Shown: positions 8,247-48,058 of the stretch, piece by piece | How the letters are laid out: the number at the start of each line of letters is the position of its first letter | Numbering within the stretch: the first letter of the stretch is position 1 | Source of the DNA: an uncultured Desulfospira sp. | Lineage (GTDB): Bacteria; Desulfobacterota; Desulfobacteria; Desulfobacterales; Desulfobacteraceae | Length of the DNA: 64,000 bases | Direction: 5' to 3' | Assembly: GCA_963663165.1 (NCBI GenBank) | Contig: OY760175.1 | Coordinates: 4,416,001 to 4,480,000 of the forward strand | Translations under genes and position numbers: made by a program | Notes under the pieces: generated by a model | Told to the model about the DNA's origin: nothing | Seen by the model: only the letters and a program-made list of their open reading frames with translations | Databases searched by the model: none

Positions 8247-10109
8247 CTATAAATTCAGTTCCTCTATGACTTTCTGCATACCGCCGAGTTTTTCAAGGGA
8301 CTTCCGACTGGGCTTTCCGGTCGCCTCATCCCAGCCGATTGTTTCGTAAAAATTCTTGATAAACCCTTTATGGTCCACAGTAATACCCGCGATGGGGCCA
8401 TCGGCCAGGGGAGGTTCTCCAACCGATCGTGCAGGCGGCTTGAAATCAGCCGGCAGTAACCCTTCCCGTACGTTAAAGGCCTGGCGCAGATTGAAGATTC
8501 GAAGGCCCGCGGCCTGTTCCTCTTCTTCACCGAATTTCCAGCCGGTAACCGCCTCAAGAAGGGGCCTGGGCATATTGGGGAAGCCGCAGAAGTCGTTGCC
8601 GAAAAGACATAGGCCCGCTGAGTTCATCACTTCCCTGGCGGCGGTGGCCATGACGTCCGGTGGTCCACTGCCCTTTGGGCTGTTTTTATCCTCAAGGGGG
8701 GAAGGTCCCAAGCCGATACCTCCCTTGACATGGCGGCCCGGGGTCGGGTCCACGGCATAGGTCCTGGCAAGCGCCGGTCCAAAGCGGGGATCGTGCATGG
8801 GCAGCTCAATCCCTTTTACGGCAACCAGATATTCATCACCTTTCCCGAGCTTCTTGGCTGCTGCCGCAGACCCAAGTGCCAGCAGCTTGCCGAATTCAGT
8901 ATTTTGATCGGCCATTTCCCGGGTGGCCTGGACAAGTGCTTCCCCGTTTCCCCAGGTCAACTCCAGACCGCCGGTTTCCTCTTTGGACAGGAGCCCGTTT
9001 TCGTAGCATTCGATGGCCCAGGCAAGTGTACCTCCCGCCGAGATGGTGTCCAGACCGTCGAGATTACAGATATGGTTGCATTTGATCAAAGCCTCAACAT
9101 CTTTGTTCATAACCAGCGGACCAAAGCTGATGGATGTTTCGTATTCAGGCCTGCCGGTTTCGCCCACAGGCCATTTGCCCTCTTCAACTTTATAGACGGC
9201 ACCGCATCCCATGGGACAGCTGGCACAGGCAAATTTTTTGGTCCGGTACTTGGCATCCATGGCTTCACCCTCAAAGGGGGAAACATCCTCTTCTTTGAAA
9301 TCAGCGTTCACGGCACCCGCCCAGTTTTTCACCGGAGCATCGCCACACATCATGGACCCGCTGGTCATGAGGGTGGTGCCCAATGCAGAAAAGCCCCCTA
9401 CCATCTGCGCCATGGGGCCTTCTTTCATGGTCTTCATGATATCCTGATTAACCGCCTTAAGACGATCCCTATCGGCCACGGGTATGGAACCCTTTCCTCT
9501 CACAACGACGGCCTTCAGGTTCTTGGACCCCATGACCGCCCCGCATCCCCCCCGTCCGGCTGCACGATGCCCGTCATTCATAACGGCGGAAATGAGCGAT
9601 AATTTTTCACCTGCCTGGCCGATGGTCGCCAGGCGAAGCTTCTTGTCCCCGAGCTCTTCCTTAAGGGTTTTCTCGGTATCTACAACATCCTTGCCCCACA
9701 GATGACCGGCGTCCTTGATTTCCACAGCACCGTCATTAATCCAAAGGTACACAGGCTTTGAGGAACTTCCAGAGACAAAAACCGCATCAAATCCAGCTTT
9801 CTTCAATTCTGCTCCGAAATAGCCTCCGGAATTGGCATCATTCCATCCTCCGGTAACCGGGGACTTGCAGACAATTGTATATCGCCCGCCAAACAAGGCT
9901 CCTGTGGCGGTCAGAGGTCCCGTTGTAAAGCCGATGATATTTTCAGGCCCCAGGGCGTCAACGCCCGGTTTCATCATATCAAACAGCACTTTCGCACCAA
10001 TGCCGTAGCCACCGATAAATTTTTCGGCAGTTTCCTGTGGCAAGTCACGCTCCTGACACTCACCACTGGTCAAATCGACAAAGAGCATTTTCCCACAGTA
10101 CCCGTTCAT
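8247..10109 (-). CDS. aor: Tungsten aldehyde:ferredoxin oxidoreductase
   Basis: KSPVTG, AAGRGG.GAVMGSKNLKA, C-x2-C-x3-C, PEYET, GLDTIS and HDPR. Start at 10109 has an RBS (alternative start 10130). Confidence 0.92.
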   Translation of the reverse strand: MNGYCGKMLFVDLTSGECQERDLPQETAEKFIGGYGIGAKVLFDMMKPGVDALGPENIIGFTTGPLTATGALFGGRYTIVCKSPVTGGWNDANSGGYFGAELKKAGFDAVFVSGSSSKPVYLWINDGAVEIKDAGHLWGKDVVDTEKTLKEELGDKKLRLATIGQAGEKLSLISAVMNDGHRAAGRGGCGAVMGSKNLKAVVVRGKGSIPVADRDRLKAVNQDIMKTMKEGPMAQMVGGFSALGTTLMTSGSMMCGDAPVKNWAGAVNADFKEEDVSPFEGEAMDAKYRTKKFACASCPMGCGAVYKVEEGKWPVGETGRPEYETSISFGPLVMNKDVEALIKCNHICNLDGLDTISAGGTLAWAIECYENGLLSKEETGGLELTWGNGEALVQATREMADQNTEFGKLLALGSAAAAKKLGKGDEYLVAVKGIELPMHDPRFGPALARTYAVDPTPGRHVKGGIGLGPSPLEDKNSPKGSGPPDVMATAAREVMNSAGLCLFGNDFCGFPNMPRPLLEAVTGWKFGEEEEQAAGLRIFNLRQAFNVREGLLPADFKPPARSVGEPPLADGPIAGITVDHKGFIKNFYETIGWDEATGKPSRKSLEKLGGMQKVIEELNL

Positions 10110-33011: not shown

Positions 33012-33764
33012 ATGAAAAGCGGTAAGCCGCTGACAGACAGGTGTGCGGTGTTATGTTCCATGATTTATTCCCTGGATGAACGGGCCAAGCTGGCCGGTGC
33101 GGTTTTAACTGTTTTTGCGTCACTGGCCTGTATTCAATGGGAATGCCAGCTTGTTCTTCTGGCGGCATCGCTGCTGCTCTGCCTTGCCTGCCGGGCCGTG
33201 GCAGGGGTTCTGGTTTTTACAGGCGTTGCTGTCCTGCTGGCCGCCGGTATCTTTTTATACCACGGGATAACCGGGTCCCAGACCCTTACCGGTATGGGGC
33301 TCCTGTTTCTGGCTCTCAAGTTCGGCCCCATGTGCGCCATGATTGTCTTTTTGTACAAAGCTGTGGATACCACCCTTTTTTTAAGGGCCATGGCCAAAAT
33401 GAAGGTCCCGGCCATGATCCTTTTGCCCCTTGGGGTCACCTTGCGGTTCATGCCGTCGTTTGTCCGGGAATTTTCCCATGTCCGGGATGCGTTGGCCTTC
33501 AGGGGGCTTGTCCTGTCGCCCGCAACGGTTTTAGCCCATCCTTTCCGGGTGATGGAATCGGTTTTAATCCCGCTGCTGATGCGGTCTGTTTTTATCGGGG
33601 AAGAGTTGTCTCGGGCGGCCCTGGCCAGGGGAATTGATGCCCCGGGCGAACCGGTCAGTATTTACGAGATCCGCTTTTCATTAAAGGATCTGGCATGGAC
33701 GGGCAGCTGGGCTGCCGGTGCTTTTGCGATCCTTTTCTGGGATTGGCGGATGGGGGGAATGTGA
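33012..33764 (+). CDS. ECF transporter T component
   Basis: LD.RAKL, LRF.P, A..RG, PLL.RS and ALARG. Start at 33012 or 33060. Confidence 0.88.
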   Translation: MKSGKPLTDRCAVLCSMIYSLDERAKLAGAVLTVFASLACIQWECQLVLLAASLLLCLACRAVAGVLVFTGVAVLLAAGIFLYHGITGSQTLTGMGLLFLALKFGPMCAMIVFLYKAVDTTLFLRAMAKMKVPAMILLPLGVTLRFMPSFVREFSHVRDALAFRGLVLSPATVLAHPFRVMESVLIPLLMRSVFIGEELSRAALARGIDAPGEPVSIYEIRFSLKDLAWTGSWAAGAFAILFWDWRMGGM

Positions 33765-35275
33765 TCCGGATTAAAAATTTAAGCTTTACCTACAAACCGG
33801 ACAAAACCGGCTGGATACTTAAGGATGCCTGCCTGGATGCCGCACCCGGGGAATGCATCCTGGTCTGCGGGGCCAGCGGGTGCGGGAAAACCACCCTGAC
33901 CCGGGCCGTTAACGGATTGATTCCCCATTTTGAAAAAGGGTGGCGGGCCGGCCGGGTCCTGGTGAACCGGGCCGGGGCTTACCGGGATGTTAAGCATTTC
34001 AGACCCCATGAATTGGCCCGGATCATGGGATCTGTATTCCAGGACCCAAGATCCCAGTTTTTTACCACCCGGGTAGAAGATGAGGTTGTCTGGGGATGTG
34101 AGAACTTAAAATTTGAAAAGAAAAAGATGACGGATCGCCTGGCGCAGGCCCTTTCCCTGTTCAACCTGGAACATCTGCGGGACAGGAACGTGTTTGAACT
34201 GTCCAACGGGGAAAAGCAGCGGGCCGTGTTTGCCTCGGTTTGGGCCATGGAACCCGGCATCTATGTTTTGGATGAGCCCTCATCCAACCTGGACCCGGGG
34301 TCGGTTCAAAATTTACGCTGGATTATCCGCCGGCTCAAAGGAAAAGGCCACACCGTTGTGATTGCCGAGCACCGCTTATATTACCTGGCCGGCCTGATTG
34401 ACCGCATGGTGGTCATGGACCGGGGAAAAATTAAAGCCTGTTACCAGGGCGGGGAAATTCAAGCGCTTTCATCTTCAGCCCTTGAAACCCGGGGGCTTCG
34501 CAGAATGGATCCGGCACACCTTGAGTTTAACGGAGGATCGGGGAGTGCCGGTGCCGGCGGTTCCGGGAAGGTCGGCCGCCAGGACCTGGTGCTTAATAAC
34601 CTGGGATTCCGGCACAAAGGAGACGCCAACCCGGTGATTAGAGATGTCAGCTTTACCATTTCAAGGGGAGAAATTTTAGGGATTTGCGGTCCCAACGGGT
34701 CAGGGAAAACCACCCTGTGCCGGCTGGTCTCAGGCTTGATCCGGAAGACAACAGGTGAGGTCTGCCTTGGCAGCACCCCGTTGCCGGCCAAAGAGCGGCT
34801 TAAGATCTGCCATCTGGTGCTCCAGCAGGCAGACCATCAATTGTTCAGGGCCAGTGTCCGGCAGGAAGTTTTGTCCATGCCCCGGTGCGCAGGAAAAGAC
34901 CGTTTTGCCATAGAGGAGATCCTTCAGTGCCTGGGCCTGCTGGACCTGGCCGATTGTCATCCCCAGGCCTTGTCCGGGGGGCAGAAGCAGCGCCTGTCCA
35001 TTGCCTGCGCCCTGGCCAGGGCCCCGGATTTTTTGATCCTTGATGAGCCCACATCCGGCATGGATGCCGGGCATATGAACCGCCTTGCCGGCCTGCTCAA
35101 GGCGTTTGCCGAAAGGGGCCGCGCTGTGGTGGTGGTCACCCATGATGCGCAGTTTATGGCAAAGACCTGTGCCCGGGCTGTGCTTCTGGATCAGGGCCGG
35201 GTAAGGATGAACCTGGATCTTTCAGAACCCCATAAGGAATTTAACGATTATCTAACCCAGGGAATTTTACCCTGA
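33761..35275 (+). CDS. ECF-type ABC ATPase with two NBDs
   Basis: GASGCGKT/LSNGEKQR/LDEP and GPNGSGKT/LSGGQKQR/LDEP. Confidence 0.93.
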   Translation: MIRIKNLSFTYKPDKTGWILKDACLDAAPGECILVCGASGCGKTTLTRAVNGLIPHFEKGWRAGRVLVNRAGAYRDVKHFRPHELARIMGSVFQDPRSQFFTTRVEDEVVWGCENLKFEKKKMTDRLAQALSLFNLEHLRDRNVFELSNGEKQRAVFASVWAMEPGIYVLDEPSSNLDPGSVQNLRWIIRRLKGKGHTVVIAEHRLYYLAGLIDRMVVMDRGKIKACYQGGEIQALSSSALETRGLRRMDPAHLEFNGGSGSAGAGGSGKVGRQDLVLNNLGFRHKGDANPVIRDVSFTISRGEILGICGPNGSGKTTLCRLVSGLIRKTTGEVCLGSTPLPAKERLKICHLVLQQADHQLFRASVRQEVLSMPRCAGKDRFAIEEILQCLGLLDLADCHPQALSGGQKQRLSIACALARAPDFLILDEPTSGMDAGHMNRLAGLLKAFAERGRAVVVVTHDAQFMAKTCARAVLLDQGRVRMNLDLSEPHKEFNDYLTQGILP

Positions 35276-35366
35276 AAGACCGTGGCGGCCTAAATTTTCG
35301 TTTAAGGTCCGCCCGCAGCAAGAGTGAAAAAAAGAACCGTTTTAAGCTGTACCAACCCGCGGACAA

Positions 35367-35399
35367 CTAACAGCTAATGGCTAACAGCTAACAGCTAAT
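35367..35399. repeat. Heptamer tandem repeat (GCTAAYR)
   Basis: CTAACA GCTAATG GCTAACA GCTAACA GCTAAT directly before an RBS. Confidence 0.8.
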
Positions 35400-35411
35400 C
35401 AAAGGAGGACC

Positions 35412-36431
35412 ATGGAAACCATAACCGACACCGGCATTAACTACCGAAGCATTGAACAGATGCTTTTCAGCAGTATTAAATCAAGGCTGTTGCTTTGTGC
35501 CATCAAGCTTAAAGTGTTTGACCTGCTCGATACCCCGGCCGAGAGTGAAACCGTGGCGGCAGCGCTGAACACCCACCCGGACAATACACGGCTGATGCTC
35601 AAGGGGCTTACGGCCTGCGGCCTTGTCCGGTATAAAGAGGGGAAATATGAAAATACAGGAGAATCAAACGCCTTTCTTAGGTCAAAAAGCGCGGCCTGCA
35701 TCACCGGATGGCTGGACCAGGCCGCCGGGATGTTCGGCCCGATCCTGGATAATTTTGAAACCCTGGTTAAGAAAGGTCCCACGCCTCCCGGGCCGGACAC
35801 CCATATGAACTCTGAGGCCATGTGCGAATTTTATACCCATGCCCATGCCCAGACCGAACTTGCCGGGGTGGCCGCCAAAACCGCCGGGATTGTCCGGGAC
35901 CTGTCTGAATTTTCAAGCATGAAGAAAATGCTGGATCTCGGGGGCGGGCCGGGGTTGAATTCAGTTGCCATTGTCCAGGCCCATGACACCCTTGAAAGCG
36001 TGGTGTTTGACAGGGCATCCGTGGCGGCCATTGCCCGGGCGTATATTGAACGGTTCGGCTGTGTCGGCCGGATCACCACGCTTTCAGGCGATTACACCAA
36101 AGATGACCCGGGAAACGGGTATGATCTGGTGCTGGCTTCAGATACCCTGTATTATGAGGGAAGCGAACTGGAACGGATTGCTGCCCGGGTTTATGATGCC
36201 TTAAATCCCGGCGGGGTACTGGTAGGGATTCACGGGGTGGTGACCAAGGACCGGACCGGCCCCGGGCCCATGGTCCTGGGCATGCTGCCCGATGCCCTTA
36301 TGGGCCAGGGGGAACTGCCCTGCGAAGGGTTTCTGGCACCGGCCCTGCTCCGGGCCGGGTTCAAACAGGTGCAGACCAGAAAAATGTTCATGGTATCTAA
36401 TGAAATGGAGGTAGACATCGCAAGAAAATGA
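35412..36431 (+). CDS. O-methyltransferase family (dimerisation domain + SAM domain)
   Basis: N-terminal wHTH-like region, LDLGGGPG, GDY and LNPGG. Confidence 0.88.
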   Translation: METITDTGINYRSIEQMLFSSIKSRLLLCAIKLKVFDLLDTPAESETVAAALNTHPDNTRLMLKGLTACGLVRYKEGKYENTGESNAFLRSKSAACITGWLDQAAGMFGPILDNFETLVKKGPTPPGPDTHMNSEAMCEFYTHAHAQTELAGVAAKTAGIVRDLSEFSSMKKMLDLGGGPGLNSVAIVQAHDTLESVVFDRASVAAIARAYIERFGCVGRITTLSGDYTKDDPGNGYDLVLASDTLYYEGSELERIAARVYDALNPGGVLVGIHGVVTKDRTGPGPMVLGMLPDALMGQGELPCEGFLAPALLRAGFKQVQTRKMFMVSNEMEVDIARK

Positions 36432-37246
36432 AACGTATCGTTGAATCTTTATCCAATCATGCCAATGAATATATCCGCTGCCTGGCCGGTTCCCATCCGT
36501 TACGAAAGCCGGTTCTCAGTGCCATGCTGGACTTTCTTTCCCTTGAGGGCAAAGGGCTTGATGTCGGCTGCGGCATCGGGCTTCCCGCTGTGGAGATGGC
36601 CCTGAAAGGCCTTGATGTGACCGGCCTTGACCGGGAAGGGGAGTTTATCGAAATTGCCCGGGGGACTGCCGAAACACTCGGGCTTAAAGACTCCCCGGTT
36701 TTTGTCCGGGGGGATGCCGGCCGCCTTGAATTTGAAGCCGATTGTTTTGACTGGGCCTGGAGCATGGATTGTGTCAATTACGCCAAAGGCCTGAATACCA
36801 CCCCTTTATCGGAAATGAAACGGGTGACAAAACCCGGGGGACGGCTGATCCTTTCCGCCTGGTCTTCCCAGATGCTGCTGCCGGGATATCCAATGCTGGA
36901 GGCCCGGTTGAACACAACCCCTGAGGGGTTGGCCCCCTTTGAGGCCGGCATGGCCCCGCTGCACCACTTCATGGCCACGGCAGGGGTATTCAAACAGATG
37001 GGCCTGAAAGCCGTTCGGTGCCAAACTTTTTTACGGGACATTTCCCTGCCTTTGTCCAGCGGGGAAACACAGGCCATGAAAGATATATTTTACATGCGCT
37101 GGTCAGGTTCTCCGTCCGGGCTGGCGCCTGGGGAAAAATCCCTGTACACGGCCCTGACCGATCCTGAGTCTGACCGGTTTGTCCTTTTAGAGCCCGGGTT
37201 TTACGGATTTTTTACCTATACGATGTTCACCGGTGTGGTGCCGTAA
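36428..37246 (+). CDS. Class I SAM-dependent methyltransferase
   Basis: LDVGCGIG, VTGLD, GDA..L.F....FD and RVTKPGG. Confidence 0.88.
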   Translation: MKRIVESLSNHANEYIRCLAGSHPLRKPVLSAMLDFLSLEGKGLDVGCGIGLPAVEMALKGLDVTGLDREGEFIEIARGTAETLGLKDSPVFVRGDAGRLEFEADCFDWAWSMDCVNYAKGLNTTPLSEMKRVTKPGGRLILSAWSSQMLLPGYPMLEARLNTTPEGLAPFEAGMAPLHHFMATAGVFKQMGLKAVRCQTFLRDISLPLSSGETQAMKDIFYMRWSGSPSGLAPGEKSLYTALTDPESDRFVLLEPGFYGFFTYTMFTGVVP

Positions 37247-38602: not shown

Positions 38603-40711
38603 CTATCTGGCCGGGGATCGTGATATTTTGGCCTCGTCAAAGGATGCCATTTCGCTCATGATCCGGCATGCGGTCTGGGCAAGCTCAATGGCCAGGGCCG
38701 CGCCCGTGGCTTCTCCCAACCGCATGTCCAGATCCATTACGGGTTCAAGTCCCATGTATTCCAGGGCGGCGGCCTGGGCCGGTTCCACGGATTTATGGCC
38801 GCAGATAAGATACCCCCGGATTTGGGGGCAGAGCATATAGGCCAGAAGGCCTGCTGCCGTGGAGATAACCCCGTCCAGAACCACGGCGCACCCCTTTGAT
38901 GCGGCGGCCAGGGCCGCACCGGCAATGCCGGCCAGTTCAAATCCCCCAAGCTTCATGAGAACATCAAGCCCCTCTTCCGGGTCAATGGCGTGGAAATGAA
39001 GTATTTTTTCAACTACCTCTGCCTTATGGGACAGCCCTTTGTTGTCCAGGCCGATTCCCCTGCCCGTGGCCTGTGCCGGTGAAAGGCCTGTGACAGCACA
39101 GATTATGGCCGTGGCGCTGGTGGTATTGCCGATGCCCATTTCTCCCAACCCCAGGATCTGGGGGGGCTCCGGGTCGCTGACGGCGGCAAACGCCCGGATC
39201 CCGTTTTCAAGGGCCTGTACCGCCTCATCCCGGGTCATGGCAGGTTCTAAGGCCATGTTCCTGGTTCCTGACGCCACCTTGGCCCGGATCAGGTCCGGGT
39301 GGGGGGAAAAGTCTTTGTCCACCCCCATGTCCACCACCTTCATGTCAATGCCGTGACAGCGGCAGATCACGTTGATGGCGGCCCCGCCGTTAAGGAAATT
39401 ATCCACCATCTGCCCGGTAACCTCCCGGGGAAATGCCGACACTCCTTCTTCGGTAACCCCATGGTCTGCGGCAAACACCAGGACCGCTTTTTTCCGGATA
39501 GCCGGTTTCAGGCTGTTCTGGATAACGGCCATCTGCACCCCTAAGCCTTCTAATTTTCCAAGGGAGCCCAGGGGCTTGCTTTTATCGTCCATTTTGGCAC
39601 GGGCTTCAGGGCCGAGGGTGCCTGCCGGGTCAATTCCCTTGATGGTGTCCATGATTAACCGGCTTTGAGAAATTGTGGTGAAGGAAGAGAGGGCCTCCTG
39701 TTTTTTCGGCAGGGCCTGATCCCGGGCCGATGTCTTAGTGGTTTTTCCGGTAAAATCCAGGATATATTTAAAGGCCTTGCCTTTTAATACTTTTGGAAGC
39801 ACTTGCGGTGCCTGTTCCGGCTGAACCACCCCTTCAATTAGCCGGGCCAGGGATTTTTCATGGGAAATCAAAAAGGGGACACCCCGTTCCATATCTGATT
39901 TTTTCATGCCATAGGCCCCTGAAATGGCAATTTCCTTGTAGTGGATCAGGTTCAGCAGGTTGGTTTCAATGGATTCATTTTTGGTGATGCCGGAAAAAAA
40001 GGAGAAATGGCCGCCCTTGTCCACCTTGGTAAGGGCCTGGCTAAAGGCAATATAATCGGGACAGGCATTAATCACGATATCAAACCGACTGTCATGGGTT
40101 TCCTTGGCACAGGCCAGGTCTTCCGCCGCCAAAACAGGGGCGATTTTCTGGATTTTTACCTCATCCTTTTCCAGGATAAAGGGCTCAAGGCCCCGGTGCC
40201 GGGCATAAATGGCCGTGATCAGCCCCATGGTGCCCCCGCCGTAAACAAGGATCCGTTTGCCCGGGGTAACGGGAAATTGATCAAAGGCGTTGACCACGCA
40301 TCCCACAGGTTCGGCGAAACAGGCCACATGGGTATCCAGTTCGTCTGGTGCGGGAATAAGGCTTGCCAGGGGCACCACGGCTTTGTGGGCAAATCCGCCG
40401 TCCCGGTGAAACCCGATAATTTTCATTTCATCACAAAGGTTTTCCCTGCCGGATCTGCAATAAGAACAGGTCCCGCAGCTGGTTCCCGGCCAGACCAAAA
40501 ACCTTTGGCCGTCCCGGGCAAGGACCACCATCTCATGGCCTAACACCCGGGGAAACACCAAATCCCGCTGTCCCTGCACCCACATCTTGGCATCGGTCCG
40601 GCAGACAGCACAGGCCAGCACATCCACCAGGACTTCATCAGGTCCGGGTTCCCGGACAGGCAGCGGCTGGATTTCAAGTTTTCCCAACCCTGTCAGCACC
40701 ATTTGGATCAT
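38603..40711 (-). CDS. cobT: Fusion: Zn-dependent MDR dehydrogenase + nicotinate-nucleotide:DMB phosphoribosyltransferase
   Basis: N-terminal half: CRTD, GHE, C-x2-C-x2-C-x7-C and GGGTMG. C-terminal half: KPLGSLGKLE, FAADHGV, GEMGIGNTT, GGFE and RLGEATGA. Confidence 0.92.
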   Translation of the reverse strand: MIQMVLTGLGKLEIQPLPVREPGPDEVLVDVLACAVCRTDAKMWVQGQRDLVFPRVLGHEMVVLARDGQRFLVWPGTSCGTCSYCRSGRENLCDEMKIIGFHRDGGFAHKAVVPLASLIPAPDELDTHVACFAEPVGCVVNAFDQFPVTPGKRILVYGGGTMGLITAIYARHRGLEPFILEKDEVKIQKIAPVLAAEDLACAKETHDSRFDIVINACPDYIAFSQALTKVDKGGHFSFFSGITKNESIETNLLNLIHYKEIAISGAYGMKKSDMERGVPFLISHEKSLARLIEGVVQPEQAPQVLPKVLKGKAFKYILDFTGKTTKTSARDQALPKKQEALSSFTTISQSRLIMDTIKGIDPAGTLGPEARAKMDDKSKPLGSLGKLEGLGVQMAVIQNSLKPAIRKKAVLVFAADHGVTEEGVSAFPREVTGQMVDNFLNGGAAINVICRCHGIDMKVVDMGVDKDFSPHPDLIRAKVASGTRNMALEPAMTRDEAVQALENGIRAFAAVSDPEPPQILGLGEMGIGNTTSATAIICAVTGLSPAQATGRGIGLDNKGLSHKAEVVEKILHFHAIDPEEGLDVLMKLGGFELAGIAGAALAAASKGCAVVLDGVISTAAGLLAYMLCPQIRGYLICGHKSVEPAQAAALEYMGLEPVMDLDMRLGEATGAALAIELAQTACRIMSEMASFDEAKISRSPAR

Positions 40712-40911
40712 GACAAATCCTCTTCTGTTAACACCAGTTTTTTAATCGTGACCTTCGGATATCCTTTTTCTGAGGCCTGCCGCATAAGCTTTCTGACCTC
40801 TTCCAGCCGGTCCATGGGAAAGACCGACGCCTTGTCCAGGCCGACCTCAAGAATGCCGCTGTCCTTAAATCTTAAATATGTATGGTGGGATTTTATAATC
40901 AACAGTTCCAT
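40708..40911 (-). CDS. Small hypothetical protein (67 aa)
   Basis: RBS AAGGA, ATGA overlap with the downstream fusion gene, and 10-bp gap to the upstream gene. Confidence 0.75.
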   Translation of the reverse strand: MELLIIKSHHTYLRFKDSGILEVGLDKASVFPMDRLEEVRKLMRQASEKGYPKVTIKKLVLTEEDLS

Positions 40912-40921
40912 GATGGTGTCC

Positions 40922-42031
40922 TTAAACCAGTGAATGAAGGGTGTTTAATCCTTTCTCAGGATGACTGTTCTGGGCCGATACCCAGTTTTCCAGGGTTTCA
41001 AAGGCCCTGCCGTTTTCCAGGAGGCAGGCGGCCTGTTCAATGCCCTGGTCCAGGTCGTTGGCCTTGCCGGCGCAAAGCAAGATCAGGCCGGCATTGAGAA
41101 TGGCCGCATCTTTTCGGGCGCTGCTTTCCCTTCCGGCCATGAGCCTTGCAAATCGTTTCACCTCCCGGTCCATTTCAGGTTCCGGCCTTAAATCTTCACA
41201 GGATGAGGCGGCCAGTCCCAGGGGCCTGGGGTCAATGGTGAAACGCTTGATCTGTGCCTGGCCGGTTGTTTTATCGGTTGAGATTTCAGCGCAACGGGTC
41301 TGGCCGCAGACCGAAGCCTCATCCATGCCCTGTCCTGAACCGTCTACCCGTCCGTGAAGCACAATAGCCCGGGTATAGCCGATTTCTTTCATGACCTTGG
41401 CCACCGGCATGATCATTTCCTCAGCGTATACCCCCCGGACGCCAATGGACGGCAGGGCCGGGTTGGCCAGGGAGGCGGCAATGTTCAGGGTGGACCCGAA
41501 ATAAAGCTGGGAGAGAATCCGGCCCAGGGCATTGGGGTGAATCTTAGGGCTCATCCCGTTGAACAGCCCCAATCCGGCAGACTGGATGCTTTTGGCCACA
41601 GTCTGGGCGGAACACTCCACATCCACCCCTAAAGATTCGGCCATATCCACCGTGCCGCAGGTCGAGGTAATGGCCCGGGCCCCGTGCCGGGCCATGGGAA
41701 CGCCTCCTGCGGCGGCTATAATGGATGAGGCAGTGGAAATATTAAAGGTTTTAAAAGAGTCCATGCCGGTTCCGGAATTTTCCGCGACCGCCAGGTCCAG
41801 GGCTACTTTGGTGGTGTCCAACTCGTAAATGGCTTCCCAGGCCCCGGCCACTTCTTCAGCACTTTCGCCTTTGGCGGTAAGGGCGGCCAGAAAGGCCCCC
41901 TGCTGGATCTGGGTGGTGGCATTGCTGAGAATGGTGGAGAACGCCTCAAAGGCGGCTTCCCGGCTTAGATTTTCCTTGTTGATGAGGCGGGTGATGACAG
42001 CCCCAAAGGCCCTATCGGTTTTTATGGTCAT
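40922..42031 (-). CDS. Divergent anthranilate phosphoribosyltransferase-like protein
   Basis: Q.GAFL.AL..KGE...E, SGTGMD...TFNIST, RHGAR, LGV, GMDE and LNAG. Confidence 0.85.
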   Translation of the reverse strand: MTIKTDRAFGAVITRLINKENLSREAAFEAFSTILSNATTQIQQGAFLAALTAKGESAEEVAGAWEAIYELDTTKVALDLAVAENSGTGMDSFKTFNISTASSIIAAAGGVPMARHGARAITSTCGTVDMAESLGVDVECSAQTVAKSIQSAGLGLFNGMSPKIHPNALGRILSQLYFGSTLNIAASLANPALPSIGVRGVYAEEMIMPVAKVMKEIGYTRAIVLHGRVDGSGQGMDEASVCGQTRCAEISTDKTTGQAQIKRFTIDPRPLGLAASSCEDLRPEPEMDREVKRFARLMAGRESSARKDAAILNAGLILLCAGKANDLDQGIEQAACLLENGRAFETLENWVSAQNSHPEKGLNTLHSLV

Positions 42032-42117
42032 AAGAATCCTCCAAATACTTCCCTGGTGTCGGGAAAATTATTCAACAGGACCTTATTCCAGCGGCAATCC
42101 TTTGGCGCTTTTTTGTC

Positions 42118-42380
42118 CGGGCAGGCTTTCCGGCTTGCGGATCACTCTAATTGCTGCACCTTCCCCTGAATTGAGCTATTAGCTTTTAGCCGTTAGCCAT
42201 TAGCTTTCGGCTAACGGCTAATGGTTTATAGCTAACAGCTTTTTCACAGAGTGGCATATTGCAGGTTTCGTCCCCGCTTACGGCAACGGCTGGTATGCAA
42301 CGGATTTTCACCGTTTTTCCTTTTACCCCGGATCCCGCTTTCAGTTAAAAAGCCGGGAAACCCAGGCACCCTGACAGTGA
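42118..42380 (-). ncRNA. Cobalamin riboswitch
   Basis: Minus strand reads GGTGC...AAAAGGAAAAACGGTGAAAATCCGTTGC...CCGTAAGCGGGG...GCCACT...GGGAAGG...GATCCGCAAGCCGGAAAGCCTGCC (B12 box). It lies upstream of a cobT operon. Confidence 0.9.
42174..42240. repeat. Inverted heptamer repeat inserted inside the riboswitch
   Basis: (TTAGCYR)n - TTTCG - (GCTAAYR)n. Confidence 0.85.
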
Positions 42381-42445
42381 CGTAAATTATAAGGATTACA
42401 AGGGGGTTTTGTCAATCCCCTGACCGGATAATCGCAGATAATTTG

Positions 42446-45390: not shown

Positions 45391-46332
45391 ATGCAAAAAG
45401 AGTCTAAAAAAACGTTTTACGAAAAGTTGGAAGCAAAAGGGGTCTCAAGAAGGGATTTCCTCAAGTACTGTACTGCCCTTACCGCTACCATGGGATTGTC
45501 CTACTCCTGTGTGGGCAAGGTCGCCGAGCAGATTGAACAGGCCGCAGCAACCCGGCCGCCTGTGGTCTGGCTGCATTTCAGTGAATGCACCGGCTGTTCG
45601 GAAGCCTTCCTGAGGACACCGGATGTGGGGGGCATTATCCTTGAAACCATTTCAGTTGAGTACCATGAAACCATCATGGCCGCAGCCGGCCATCAGGCCG
45701 AAAAGAACCTGCATGACGCCGTTGAAAAGTACACCGGTAAATTCGTATGTGTCGTGGAAGGCGCTATTGCCACCAATTACAACGGGGCCTACGGCAAAGT
45801 TGCCGGCAGAACTTTCCTGGAAATCGCCAAGGATGTCGTGCCCAAGGCCGCGGCAACCATCTGTCTGGGAACCTGTGCCTGTTACGGCGGCGTAGCGGCA
45901 GCCGCTCCCAACCCGGGTGGATACAAGGGCGTGGGTGATGCGCTGGGCATCTCCCCCATCAACCTCCCCGGTTGTCCCACCAATCCCCTTAACCTGCTGG
46001 GGACCATTCTCAAATACCTGAACAATGAAGCCATGGAGCTGGACGATTACGGCAGGCCCATGTTCGCCTATGGCGAGACGGTTCACGACAACTGCCCCCG
46101 GCTTAAGCATTACGAAGAAGGCAATTTTGTTGAAGAATTCGGGTCCAAGGAAGCTGAAATGGGCTACTGTCTTTACCAGATGGGCTGTAAAGGGCCTGAA
46201 ACCTATAATAACTGTCCTACTGCAAAATTTAATGATGCCACCAGCTTTCCCATCCAGGCCGGCCATCCCTGCATCGGATGCAGCGAGCCTGACTTCTGGG
46301 ACAGCATGACACCGTTTTACGAAGAATCTTAA
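45391..46332 (+). CDS. Periplasmic group 1 [NiFe] hydrogenase small subunit
   Basis: Tat signal SRRDFLK, ECTGCSE, GTCACYGG, PGCP, HDNCPR, GCKGP and CIGCSEP. Confidence 0.96.
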   Translation: MQKESKKTFYEKLEAKGVSRRDFLKYCTALTATMGLSYSCVGKVAEQIEQAAATRPPVVWLHFSECTGCSEAFLRTPDVGGIILETISVEYHETIMAAAGHQAEKNLHDAVEKYTGKFVCVVEGAIATNYNGAYGKVAGRTFLEIAKDVVPKAAATICLGTCACYGGVAAAAPNPGGYKGVGDALGISPINLPGCPTNPLNLLGTILKYLNNEAMELDDYGRPMFAYGETVHDNCPRLKHYEEGNFVEEFGSKEAEMGYCLYQMGCKGPETYNNCPTAKFNDATSFPIQAGHPCIGCSEPDFWDSMTPFYEES

Positions 46333-46338
46333 CCGCCA

Positions 46339-46402
46339 CTGACGGCTAACGATTAACAGTTAAAAGCTAATGGCTGACGGCTAACCGTTAAAAGCCAACA
46401 GC
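46339..46402. repeat. Degenerate heptamer tandem repeat
   Basis: About nine GCTAACR-like units between the hydrogenase genes. Confidence 0.75.
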
Positions 46403-46420
46403 TTACGAAAGGATATTATT

Positions 46421-48058
46421 ATGGGTAAAAGAATTATTGTTGACCCGATTACCAGAATCGAGGGTCATTTGAGAATCGAAGTTGAAGTTGAAAACGGCAA
46501 AGTCAAGGATGCCTGGAGTTCAGGGCAGATGTTCCGGGGTATTGAGATGATGCTCCAGGGCCGGGATCCTCAGGATGCCCACCATTTTGTACAAAGGTCC
46601 TGCGGGGTCTGTACCTATATTCATGCCCTTTCTTCTGTCAGGGCTGTGGAAGATGCCTGTAACATTGAAATCCCTGAGAATGCCCGAATTATCCGGAACC
46701 TGCTTCACGGGGCCCAGTACCAGCATGACCATATTGTTCATTTTTATCACCTCCACGCCCTGGACTGGGTGGATATTGTCAGCGCCCTGTCAGCAGATCC
46801 GGTTAAAACCGCTAAACTTTCGGAAAATGTGTCCGGACGTCCCCAGAGTTCAGAATATTTCAAAACGGTTCAGACCAAGCTGACAACCTTTGTCAACAGC
46901 GGTCAGCTCGGCCCGTTTAACAACGCTTACTGGGGCCACTCCGCCTATCAGCTGCCGGCAGAAGCCAATCTCATGGCGGCTTCCCATTACCTGGAAGGCA
47001 TCAAACTCCAGGCCAAAGCCGCCCGGATGCATGCCATTTTCGGCGGCAAAAACCCCCATCCCCAGTCCCTGGTGGTGGGCGGTGTCACCTGTGTGGGCGA
47101 CCTGACCCCGGAAAGAATTGATGAGTTCGTGGATATCTGGAAAGAAACCAAAGCCTTTGTGGACGAAGTGTATCTGCCGGATCTCCTGGCCGTGGCCTCT
47201 TTTTATAAAAATTGGGGCGCCATTGGCGGAAACAACGACACCTTCCTGGCTTATGGCGACTTCCCCCAGAAAAATATCAATGACGACCTGCTGCTTCCCA
47301 GCGGGGTTCTTTTAGGAGACCTTAGCCCCAAAGCCGTGGATACTCAAAAAATCACTGAGGACGTTACCCGGTCCTGGTATGAAGACGGCAGCGCCAAACA
47401 TCCCTATGAGGGGGAAACCAAGCCCATCAAGGGTGAAGTGACCTACAACACGGAGGATAAGTACTCCTGGATAAAAGCCCCCCGGTATGCGGGCAAATCT
47501 GCTGAAGTCGGCCCCCTTTCAAGGGTTCTCGTGGCCTATACCAGCGGCCAGGAACACGTAAAGAAACTGGTGGACCATACCCTTAAAACCCTGGACGTGA
47601 AAACCGATGCCCTGTTCTCCACCCTGGGCAGAACCGCTGCCCGGGCCATTGAAACCGTGGTGGTCGGTGATGCCATGGAAGGATGGATTGATACCCTTAA
47701 ATCCAACATTTCTGCGGGCAACAAAAAGACCTACCAGTCCTGGACCATGCCGGACAAGGGCAGGGGATACGGCCTCAATGATGTTCCCCGGGGCGCTCTG
47801 GGCCACTGGATCGATATTGAGGGCGGCAAGATCAAAAATTACCAGTACGTGGTTCCCTCCACCTGGAACCTTGGTCCCAGCGACGCCTCAAATCAGAAAG
47901 GGCCTGTGGAAAGCTCTTTGATCGGCACCCCCATTGCCGATCCCCAAAAGCCCCTGGAAGTGTTGAGAACCGTCCATTCCTACGATCCGTGCATTGCCTG
48001 TGCCATACACGTGATTGATCCGCATACTAACGAAACCTATAAGGTAAGAGTGATATAG
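46421..48058 (+). CDS. [NiFe] hydrogenase large subunit
   Basis: DPITRIEGH, L1 RSCGVC, L2 DPCIACAIH and a cleavable C-terminal tail. Confidence 0.97.
   Translation: MGKRIIVDPITRIEGHLRIEVEVENGKVKDAWSSGQMFRGIEMMLQGRDPQDAHHFVQRSCGVCTYIHALSSVRAVEDACNIEIPENARIIRNLLHGAQYQHDHIVHFYHLHALDWVDIVSALSADPVKTAKLSENVSGRPQSSEYFKTVQTKLTTFVNSGQLGPFNNAYWGHSAYQLPAEANLMAASHYLEGIKLQAKAARMHAIFGGKNPHPQSLVVGGVTCVGDLTPERIDEFVDIWKETKAFVDEVYLPDLLAVASFYKNWGAIGGNNDTFLAYGDFPQKNINDDLLLPSGVLLGDLSPKAVDTQKITEDVTRSWYEDGSAKHPYEGETKPIKGEVTYNTEDKYSWIKAPRYAGKSAEVGPLSRVLVAYTSGQEHVKKLVDHTLKTLDVKTDALFSTLGRTAARAIETVVVGDAMEGWIDTLKSNISAGNKKTYQSWTMPDKGRGYGLNDVPRGALGHWIDIEGGKIKNYQYVVPSTWNLGPSDASNQKGPVESSLIGTPIADPQKPLEVLRTVHSYDPCIACAIHVIDPHTNETYKVRVI

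Follow-up and report, generated by a model that had tools for sequence, protein, structure and literature searches.

Background

The lower base of a cobamide is activated by CobT as an alpha-ribotide. In the chemistry of BluB, which is O2-dependent, C2 of the base derives from a sugar C1' bound to an aryl nitrogen, and purine-type cobamides do not require any dedicated base synthesis. In the bza operons the base-related genes are immediate neighbours of cobT, and in some loci of cobS, under the control of a B12 riboswitch. Here we describe a cassette which has these features in common with the bza operons but lacks a radical-SAM/ThiC-like enzyme and carries a PRPP transferase and an NAD dehydrogenase instead, with a fold unrelated to that of BluB. 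The three genes of the cassette are found together repeatedly in anaerobic bacteria and archaea, where they are probably responsible for a step, not described so far, in the assembly of the lower part of B12-type cofactors. No description of the function of the cassette was found in a literature search.

Operon layout and regulation

The window, i.e. the whole stretch of 64 kb which was analyzed from contig OY760175.1 of an uncultured Desulfospira sp., carries the cassette on its minus strand. The first gene encodes a TrpD-like PRPP-dependent phosphoribosyltransferase (40922..42031, an ORF of 369 aa recognized by Pfam and NCBIfam profiles), and its stop is separated by a gap of 10 bp from the start of a small ORF of 67 aa (40708..40911). 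The stop of the small ORF overlaps in ATGA with the start of the third gene, a fusion of 702 aa (38603..40711, ORF and profile matches). The N-terminus of the fusion is a Zn-dependent MDR dehydrogenase domain (residues 1 to ~344, 39680..40711; PF08240 and PF00107), and its C-terminus is a CobT domain, a NaMN:base phosphoribosyltransferase (38603..39676; PF02277 and TIGR03160).

Upstream of these genes and on the same strand, a cobalamin riboswitch aptamer, one peripheral stem of which carries a long insertion, was found at 42103..42388. It matches the full model (1-189) of RF00174; the score of 71.2 bits (E 1.4e-15) exceeds the gathering score of 31.5, and this is the sole Rfam family above threshold across the window. 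A sigma-70-type promoter, TTGACA-18 nt-TATAAT (42386..42415, minus strand), agrees with the consensus at 12 of 12 positions, abuts the riboswitch and runs up to the first base of the RF00174 match. Three promoter-like sites were found in the region against 2.7 expected, so it is the position and the perfect consensus of this site that carry weight and not the number of sites. The leader between aptamer and gene (42032..42102, minus strand) is the probable expression platform and has a GGAGGA ribosome-binding site at 42045-42040, ahead of the TrpD-like ATG. No intrinsic-terminator-like site was found by sequence scan between the aptamer and this start codon, and hence the riboswitch would act by translational control.

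The arrangement is best explained as a single B12-repressed transcription unit of promoter, cobalamin riboswitch and three translationally coupled genes. The first-pass annotation had described a cobalamin riboswitch heading three tightly coupled genes, and all of these elements were recovered in place. The absence of trp genes nearby, which it also reported, holds for ~10-19 kb on either side within the annotated part of the window (~21-48 kb).

Properties of the encoded proteins

The TrpD-like protein scores 237.3 bits with TIGR01245 against a cut-off of 199.05 and has the PF02885 plus PF00591 two-domain architecture. It shares the fold family and the PPi, 5'-phosphate and Mg ligands with canonical TrpD, is ~32-37% identical to canonical TrpDs including that of its own genome, and its closest solved relatives are all AnPRTs (9ucw, 154 bits; 1vqu, 132 bits). 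The quoted motifs GTGMD, TFNIST, RHGA, GMDE and IHPNALGRILSQLYFGSTLNIAAS are each present in the translation. GTGMD stands in place of GTGGD and RHGA in place of KHGN, so that the protein does not carry the TrpD signature, and both changed motifs are invariant in 11 clade members. The roles of AnPRT residues, including the anthranilate-binding Asn of KHGN, are given in parts of PMC9835598 and PMC5537072, and the residues of the TrpD-like protein were mapped by alignment onto the assignments in the former. By this mapping the PRPP/PPi/Mg ligands N97, S99, T100, R115, T122/S123, D237 and E238 are kept in the clade, Arg115 replacing the Lys of KHGN, while the anthranilate-binding Asn is changed to Ala and one anthranilate ligand is thus gone. 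The segment of helix alpha-8 is also remodelled with respect to canonical TrpD and has two extra residues. R171 is nearly invariant in the clade and is a possible counterpart of the carboxylate-binding Arg of TrpD, with uncertain register. The two clades are separated by a gap in score, the TrpD-like clade having at least 265 bits and canonical TrpD at most 189 bits. The protein is best explained as an N-phosphoribosyltransferase that uses PRPP and whose acceptor pocket has been remodelled.

The first-pass annotation placed CobT behind an intact MDR dehydrogenase, and the catalytic Zn ligands, the structural Cys4, the GxGxxG motif and the acidic NAD residue are all there. Among 82 dehydrogenase sequences the catalytic Zn ligands are found as C37 in 80, H59 in 71 (Glu in 10), E60 in 81 and E134 in 82, and the structural Cys C79/82/85/93, GxGxxG (G158/160/163) and Glu/Asp181 are found in 82/82. 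With these ligand and motif residues conserved, both the transferase and the dehydrogenase look active. The catalytic and structural zinc sites and the NAD-type Rossmann motif are common to this domain and the Zn-dependent MDR polyol dehydrogenases and threonine dehydrogenase. The nearest named family is L-threonine 3-dehydrogenase (PDB 3gfb, 2dfv), but the domain is far under the equivalog cut-offs of this and every other named MDR family (TIGR00692, 103.5 against 458.35 bits; NF003808, 104.4 against 380), and PF00107 is matched with 30.9 bits, slightly below its cut-off of 31.8. The cassette dehydrogenase forms a distinct orthologous group which, in the loci examined, occurs exclusively next to the TrpD-like gene, and the dehydrogenases of archaea, Firmicutes and others had the fused domain as their top match in this genome in 7/7 cases tested.

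The CobT domain is orthodox and differs from described CobT/ArsAB proteins by its fusion behind a dehydrogenase. It scores 419.5 bits with TIGR03160 (cut-off 319.3), its closest solved relatives are Thermus CobT (251 bits) and ArsA (242 bits), and it has GEMGIGNT and LGEATGA, where we take the GEMGIGNT loop and LGE-x-TGA with the catalytic Glu to be the CobT motifs. The protein of 67 aa has no Pfam or NCBIfam match and is probably an accessory subunit. It directly follows the TrpD-like gene in 43/92 loci and has relatives in 263 representative clusters among 1.84 billion proteins, with lengths of 40-135 aa among the 150 matches listed. Its AlphaFold2 model has a pLDDT of 96.9, and comparison of the model with known folds gave no convincing match.

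Distribution of the cassette

Gene linkage was counted over 92 distinct loci (73 bacterial and 19 archaeal). The dehydrogenase adjoins the TrpD-like gene in 84 of the 92 and is fused to CobT in 31, and CobT is unfused but adjacent in 15 (8 bacterial-type and 7 archaeal-type). In the 7 Methanothrix-type loci the gene of the archaeal-type CobT (TIGR00303, 318 bits at a cut-off of 240, with no Pfam match) immediately precedes that of the dehydrogenase, and we consider the linkage to this separate archaeal family the most informative result. One protein (P0121) is a fusion of the TrpD-like enzyme and the dehydrogenase. CobS is found downstream of the cassette at 4 loci, and CbiZ together with a TonB receptor at one. 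Two genomes have the operon order riboswitch-ADH-TrpD-like-CobT-CobS, in which the cassette occupies the place of bzaF/bzaAB in bza operons; in each of these genomes there is one ThiC-family gene, and BluB was not found above its cut-off. The genes of the cassette are thus conserved together across phyla and domains. In the phylum sample CobT is present in all 13 cassette genomes, and the fusion is the only CobT in two of them.

An nhmmer profile placed the riboswitch immediately ahead of the first cassette gene at 59 of the 73 bacterial loci and at none of the 19 archaeal ones. Rfam confirms RF00174 at 9 of 13 cassette loci checked, and the profile was in agreement with Rfam on all 13.

The expectation that bza and bluB would be absent where the cassette is present stands only in part. 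BluB was not over cut-off in any of five cassette genomes tested, and several are without a second ThiC paralogue, but a ThiC-like/CobT pair under riboswitch control is present in the Desulfospira genome itself. Its ThiC-like member is the only ThiC-family gene of the genome and lies 635 kb off beside the other cobT, so that two riboswitch-controlled CobT modules occur together. A second ThiC copy is found in 4/13 cassette genomes and in ~84/401 of the phylum sample (the latter counted by eye); it is thus no rarer with the cassette, which argues against a simple replacement of BzaF. Since purine-type cobamides do without dedicated base synthesis, a missing BluB or BzaF lends weak support to base supply by the cassette.

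Proposed function

Comparative genomics strongly supports the view, already taken in the first-pass annotation, that this is a cobamide operon and that its TrpD-like enzyme, which acts with CobT, is distinct from the tryptophan enzyme. The cassette very probably serves CobT-dependent nucleotide-loop assembly, and as the CobT domain is orthodox, the novelty more likely lies in the substrate fed to CobT. Our leading, though tentative, reading is that the TrpD-like/dehydrogenase pair supplies a base for activation by CobT. The TrpD-like enzyme would couple PRPP with a nitrogen nucleophile other than anthranilate (an amine in the first-pass annotation), the dehydrogenase would oxidize the N-ribosyl intermediate or a ring-opened or cyclized form of it, and a new heteroaromatic base would be set free, which the fused or neighbouring CobT would turn with NaMN into the alpha-ribotide for CobS. 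If this mechanism is right, the end-game would be similar to that of BluB. The presence of CobT in all 13 cassette genomes of the phylum sample, the two operons with the cassette in the place of bzaF/bzaAB and the two CobT modules kept in the Desulfospira genome point towards base supply. Some observations speak against base supply. The Methanomassiliicoccus-type loci have no CobT or other cob gene within 6 kb, genome G606 has the TrpD-like and small proteins with no dehydrogenase orthologue at E 1e-20, the outlier G028 (42% identical) is also without the dehydrogenase, and a MAG titled Eubacterium limosum has the cassette together with an adjacent ThiC-like pair, probably bzaAB. In many cases the cassette stands by itself as a two-gene operon, which requires that its substrates be common metabolites, and we can name no common nitrogen nucleophile that would yield a benzimidazole.

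A role in the supply of the CobT donor is unlikely but deserves some weight. TrpD-fold enzymes invert alpha-PRPP to beta-ribotides and CobT inverts a beta-donor to an alpha-product, so a TrpD-like enzyme that remakes beta-NaMN from PRPP and the nicotinate released by CobT would let PRPP drive alpha-ribotide formation through two inversions. Apart from this stereochemical fit, R171 as a possible carboxylate-binding Arg (its register being uncertain), the linkage to both CobT families, for which the NaMN donor is common, the independence of the cassette from ThiC copy number (a proxy for BzaF/BzaAB) and the failure to find NAPRTase in 3 of 5 cassette genomes all agree with it. However, the always-present dehydrogenase would be left without a role, the Desulfospira genome has a NAPRTase-family gene (202 bits), and NaMN is an ordinary NAD intermediate while the flux required for cobamides is tiny. 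The dehydrogenase would have work to do if the TrpD-like enzyme made the beta-ribotide of a base from PRPP and the dehydrogenase flipped it to alpha by transient oxidation of a ribose hydroxyl, so that alpha-ribazole-phosphate-type nucleotides would be reached without NaMN. The two enzymes would then act in succession on the same molecule, which fits the 84/92 adjacency and the single TrpD-like::ADH fusion, and Mattes and Escalante-Semerena reportedly postulated in 2017 that the alpha-riboside can be formed from the base by a route not involving CobT. We nevertheless hold this to be improbable, because a substitute for CobT would not be expected in fusion with it (31 loci) or next to it (15 more), CobT is kept in 13/13 cassette genomes of the phylum sample, and we know of no MDR enzyme that performs such an anomer conversion.

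There is a slim chance that the product of the pair is phosphoribosylamine or AIR, formed beyond the reach of purine feedback control, for a ThiC-like 5-hydroxybenzimidazole synthase under B12 scarcity. Lambrecht and Downs are said to have found in 2013 that TrpD is able to convert PRPP and enamines to phosphoribosylamine, the threonine dehydrogenase to which the cassette enzyme is nearest has an enolizable product, and the riboswitch-ThiC-like-CobT pair of the same genome is in line with this; but the cassette occurs in G145 (99% complete) and G404, both without a ThiC-family gene, and the fusion to CobT would be unexplained. The same similarity to L-threonine 3-dehydrogenases (the top named matches, 104 bits; PDB 3gfb, 2dfv) would suit an enzyme that provides the nucleotide-loop linker with aminoacetone or aminopropanol where a known L-threonine kinase is lacking, as would the one locus in which CbiZ and a TonB receptor accompany the cassette, and the legend of a gene-map figure in PMC8620254 names trpD, a dehydrogenase ('DH') and cbiZ. 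Against this very doubtful proposal, the scores are far under the Tdh cut-offs (380 and 458 bits), the PRPP transferase is left without a role, and the cassette is linked to CobT and CobS and not to CobD or CbiB. It is hardly credible that the gene is an ordinary second TrpD for tryptophan synthesis which lies near B12 genes by chance, even though TIGR01245 is passed (237 against 199 bits) and the sources that name the protein all call it anthranilate phosphoribosyltransferase. A canonical TrpD (405 bits) is already present in a separate trpEGDCF operon (C1:2250145-2254891), 2.2 Mb from the cassette, and a separate match at the level of TrpD was found in 12 of the 13 cassette-bearing genomes in the phylum sample. 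The signature motifs are altered, the clades are set apart in score, no trp gene adjoins a member of the TrpD-like clade among annotated loci, and B12-riboswitch control with MDR-dehydrogenase and CobT partners, which sets the gene apart from canonical TrpD, extends across two domains of life. The separate trpEGDCF operon together with the second riboswitch-controlled ThiC-like/CobT pair indicates that the cassette is not for tryptophan synthesis.

Neither benzimidazole nor 5-methylbenzimidazole is among the four benzimidazoles that PMC6461909 assigns to bza gene sets. A link of the cassette to 5-methylbenzimidazole cobamides is only a lead. The core of the system would be an ancient pair of enzymes, a TrpD-fold transferase and a NAD-dependent zinc MDR dehydrogenase, which work alongside the CobT reaction, and in the Desulfospira lineage the dehydrogenase would have been fused to CobT and the 67-aa accessory protein added. 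If base supply by this pair is true, it would represent a lower-ligand route independent of O2 and of radical-SAM chemistry, parallel to the ThiC-like/CobT module of the same genome.

Operon organization in the source genome

The operon is a predicted compact transcription unit, with all of its elements on the minus strand. A promoter with a perfect consensus match (TTGACA-18-TATAAT, 42415-42386) abuts a cobalamin riboswitch aptamer (42103-42388; Rfam, 71.2 bits, gathering score 31.5), and no other Rfam family was found above threshold in the 64-kb window. The aptamer and the TrpD-like gene (40922-42031, 369 aa) are separated by a 70-nt leader that includes a GGAGGA ribosome-binding site; the gene was identified via PF02885, PF00591 and TIGR01245 (237 bits, cut-off 199). 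After a 10-bp gap follows a small ORF of 67 aa (40708-40911) with zero Pfam or NCBIfam matches, and this overlaps by ATGA the fusion gene (38603-40711, 702 aa), in which the PF08240 and PF00107 domains of a dehydrogenase (ADH) precede CobT (TIGR03160). The CobT part of the fusion is orthodox, scoring 419.5 bits against the NCBIfam cut-off of 319. The sequence details quoted in the first-pass annotation were all recovered by ORF calling, Pfam, NCBIfam and Rfam.

The riboswitch contains an unusually long insertion (42170-42250, minus strand), which Rfam aligns as 75 nt and where repeated GCTAA/TAGC words abound; it can form a long extra hairpin. The flanks (33695-37246 and 45391-48058) hold on one side a double-ATPase ECF-type transporter component, two SAM methyltransferases and an AraC-type regulator, and on the other side ORFs resembling the small and large subunits of [NiFe]-hydrogenase. 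None of the window neighbours (ECF ATPase, two methyltransferases, AraC regulator, rhomboid, panB, hydrogenase-like ORFs) was conserved with the cassette, i.e. the TrpD-like gene and the Zn-dependent MDR dehydrogenase gene.

The source genome is a single contig of 6.74 Mb and has a canonical TrpD (405 bits) within trpE-G-D-C-F, 2.2 Mb from the window operon. The PRPP transferase of the window is thus not the only TrpD of the genome, which the first-pass annotation had named as a finding that would count against its reading, and it is not the tryptophan enzyme. A stand-alone second CobT (433 bits) is encoded elsewhere on the contig behind a ThiC-like gene, and a separate cobalamin riboswitch of 84.7 bits heads this pair (G000:C1:5091978-5094621, minus strand; locus L006, 9978-12621). 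This ThiC-like gene is the sole ThiC-family match of the source genome, so it is either BzaF in an organism without ThiC or one enzyme for both thiamine and 5-hydroxybenzimidazole.

The TrpD-like clade and its acceptor site

Relatives of the TrpD-like protein were found in 13 of the 401 phylum-sample genomes, source genome included, with identities of 42-100% and scores of 265 bits or more. The next-best matches in this sample are canonical TrpDs with at most 189 bits and 37% identity, and these scores define the TrpD-like protein as a sequence clade of its own, apart from canonical TrpD. Twelve of the 13 genomes have a TrpD-level match elsewhere too. The best 120 relatives in a large protein collection share 67-93% identity, and the named ones among them are all called 'anthranilate phosphoribosyltransferase'.

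Twelve clade members were aligned with the real TrpD of the source genome, and residue roles were mapped as given in passages of a 2023 review (PMC9835598) and of PMC5537072. The ligands of pyrophosphate, 5'-phosphate and Mg that PMC9835598 assigns in these passages are retained (N97, S99, T100, T122/S123, D237, E238), with the Lys among them replaced by Arg115. GTGGD of TrpD reads GTGMD in the clade, the Asn of KHGN, given there as anthranilate-binding, is an invariant Ala, and the helix carrying the Arg described as carboxylate-binding is remodelled; Arg171, which hardly varies, is a possible but not a certain counterpart of that Arg. Since the PRPP and Mg ligands are kept and the acceptor residues are changed, the natural reading is a PRPP-dependent transferase with an acceptor different from anthranilate.

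Two irregular clade members were also noted. One is encoded at L048 (genome G089; 8322-9436, minus strand), where a single in-frame TAG interrupts the TrpD-like gene of a riboswitch-TrpD-like-small-ADH::CobT operon that is complete in all other parts; gene decay, an error in sequencing or read-through could explain it. The other, protein P0122 (787 aa, 53% identity), is fused to a PF03415 domain, which may reflect faulty gene calling or add another fusion partner.

Distribution and conservation of the gene set

For the 12 other cassette-bearing members of the phylum sample, flanks of about 8 kb were taken in both directions, or shorter ones where a contig ended. A scan of about 185,000 species genomes (one per species) with the clade alignment gave at least 601 pattern matches and at least 590 confirmed loci, of which 80 were added; one locus common to both sets was counted once, so that, with the window, 92 distinct loci were compared. 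Custom HMMs, along with Pfam spot checks, served to detect the dehydrogenase, CobT and the small protein in them.

The grouping of the genes proposed in the first-pass annotation is borne out, as the dehydrogenase adjoins the TrpD-like gene in 84 of the 92 loci and the three genes occur in the order TrpD-like, small protein, ADH::CobT in 31 loci, from Desulfobacterales, Desulfobulbales and two Bacteroidota. Among the eight exceptions, four (L047, L056, L061, L094) have a contig end within less than 700 bases on the expected dehydrogenase side, in one (L059) the contig stops some 2 kb downstream, for two an ADH::CobT fusion is encoded at another place in the genome, and one has no dehydrogenase in its genome at E 1e-20. 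A second layout, ADH followed by TrpD-like, is present in 45 loci of archaea, Firmicutes, Syntrophia, Dehalococcoidia and others, and sometimes continues with the small protein or with CobT-CobS. One protein of the large collection, P0121, is a direct TrpD-like::ADH fusion. Second-layout dehydrogenases representing seven distant lineages were compared with the source genome, and every one had the fused domain as its best match (122-183 bits; next MDR 53-105 bits), hence the dehydrogenases form one orthologous family.

In genome G206, from the family of the closest sampled relative, the cassette is split over two loci: at L037 the TrpD-like gene and the small protein share the operon strand with a shikimate-kinase-family gene and have no riboswitch, and an ADH::CobT fusion of 737 aa (L129) lies 3.3 Mb away.

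The cassette enzymes look active from their conserved residues. In 82 dehydrogenases the catalytic Zn ligands are C37 (80/82), H59 (71/82, with Glu in 10), E60 (81/82) and E134 (82/82), and the four structural Cys, GxGxxG and the NAD-indicating acidic residue are present in all. The nearest named family is L-threonine 3-dehydrogenase, with a score far below its cut-off.

The small protein is predicted to have a beta-beta-beta-beta-alpha-beta fold (pLDDT 96.9), for which no convincing structural relative was obtained (best Foldseek E-value 0.56, best VIA-align Z 4.5); a likeness to the RuBisCO small subunit appeared in weak rows not above noise and was rejected. Its ESM Atlas matches are 'hypothetical protein' clusters only. 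It has 263 representative clusters among 1.84 billion proteins, and the 150 of these that were listed measure 40-135 aa, so that there is no full-enzyme fusion among the matches listed. In Methanomassiliicoccus-type loci (L102, L103, L107, L112, L113, L116, L117, L125) ORFs of 121-189 aa recur directly downstream of the TrpD-like gene; these have no family match and are unrelated to the bacterial small protein (hmmsearch E > 0.7).

Link to CobT and to B12 regulation

Bacterial-type CobT is fused in 31 of the 92 loci and adjacent but unfused in 8. In seven Methanothrix-type loci the dehydrogenase is preceded by an ORF of about 350 aa without Pfam match, which belongs to the archaeal CobT family (TIGR00303, 318 bits, cut-off 240); this neighbourhood is a new observation here. 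The two CobT types are not homologous according to the relevant passage of PMC7617358, and are at best very distant relatives. The cassette is therefore tied to two different enzymes of the same reaction, which argues for coupling to the CobT reaction rather than for inherited gene order. CobT is found in all 13 cassette genomes of the phylum sample, compared with 285 of 401 overall, and two of the 13 have no CobT besides the ADH::CobT fusion. Most archaeal CobTs escape PF02277, so 'no CobT' by this model in archaeal genomes carries no meaning. At L097 (5858-6899), a locus of a Methanotrichaceae MAG, the archaeal-type CobT that precedes the cassette is broken into two ORFs of 214 + 137 aa, probably by a frameshift.

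Rfam gave a cobalamin riboswitch at 9 of 13 loci checked. A MAFFT alignment of nine aptamers was too ragged for a covariance model, so the survey was done with an iterated nhmmer profile, which agrees with Rfam at 13/13 loci. This profile puts a riboswitch immediately ahead of the first cassette gene, in matching orientation, at 59 of 73 bacterial loci and at 0 of 19 archaeal loci; five of the 14 bacterial loci without it have less than 850 bases of upstream sequence. Taken with the CobT association, these data show what would be a module serving the CobT step and, by its predicted riboswitch, repressed by B12. At L108 and L123 the riboswitch-like element in front of the cassette is joined, further downstream on that strand, by two more that precede other genes, all three lying inside about 6.5 kb, which suggests a larger B12 regulon cluster.

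Possible role of the cassette

The reading preferred here, although tentatively, is that the cassette supplies a base to CobT and that its dehydrogenase would oxidise or aromatise an N-ribosyl intermediate. It is preferred because it gives the dehydrogenase a natural role, the CobT domain is orthodox, and the source genome has two parallel riboswitch-controlled CobT modules. Two further genomes with the order riboswitch-ADH-TrpD-like-CobT-CobS also favour it, since the cassette stands there in the place that bzaF/bzaAB have in the bza operons, with one ThiC-family gene per genome and BluB over cut-off found in neither. The first-pass annotation had expected bza and bluB to be absent; this is seen only in part, for BluB at its cut-off, and a second ThiC paralogue (as BzaF proxy) is no rarer with the cassette (4/13 against about 84/401 counted by eye, no association), which speaks against base supply. 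A MAG titled Eubacterium limosum, with the cassette and an adjacent ThiC-like pair (probably bzaAB), likewise counts against it, and so does the fact that we can name no common nucleophile yielding benzimidazole.

Regeneration of NaMN by the TrpD-like enzyme would fit stereochemically, but it is unlikely as it leaves the dehydrogenase idle and the source genome already has an NAPRTase-family gene. Both enzymes would be employed in an anomer conversion, an improbable account that leaves the fusion to CobT unexplained. Still less probable is a supply of AIR, which fails in cassette genomes without any ThiC-family gene, and we would hardly expect linker synthesis by the dehydrogenase, where the PRPP transferase has no use.

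Base supply can be narrowed to a specific proposal, itself unlikely, in which the cassette is the missing O2-independent and radical-SAM-independent route to 5-methylbenzimidazole and/or benzimidazole, and C1' of PRPP would become C2 of the base. The lead to 5-methylbenzimidazole arises since the taxa of the cassette coincide with those of the reported ligand. Among the matches listed, the cassette is frequent above all in Desulfobacterales and Desulfobulbales, and also in the class to which a Methanothrix-type genome belongs, where 75 of 201 genomes have a clade member with at least 59% identity. Kohler is said to have described 5-methylbenzimidazole in 1988 as the main lower ligand in Methanothrix soehngenii. 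The title of a 1988 paper, as cited in PMC7617358, names 5'-methylbenzimidazolyl-cobamides as corrinoids of some sulfate reducers, and the bza scheme in the part of PMC6461909 consulted gives four benzimidazoles, 5-methylbenzimidazole not among them. The link is a correlation of taxa and is offered as a lead.

Value of the findings

Cobamide lower ligands determine which microbes share or use one another's B12. To our knowledge there are two routes to benzimidazole bases, BluB and Bza, and in anaerobes and archaea we know of no assigned gene for several steps of nucleotide-loop assembly. The literature searched yielded no paper that gives this TrpD paralogue or the ADH::CobT fusion a function. 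A gene-map figure legend in an Antarctic Chlorobium paper (PMC8620254) names trpD, a dehydrogenase ('DH') and cbiZ, and the passages returned from it do not discuss the first two; a term search of the main text of a Dehalobacter corrinoid-starvation paper (PMC4285132) gave neither an anthranilate nor a dehydrogenase gene.

The cassette, with at least 590 confirmed loci in bacteria and archaea, is B12-controlled by prediction, tied to two CobT families, and annotated everywhere as an ordinary tryptophan gene along with a generic dehydrogenase. Knowing its reaction would extend B12 biochemistry by a step or a pathway, put right a systematic mis-annotation and sharpen genome-based prediction of which organisms make which cobamide, in settings such as methanogenic digesters, sediments and dehalogenating consortia.
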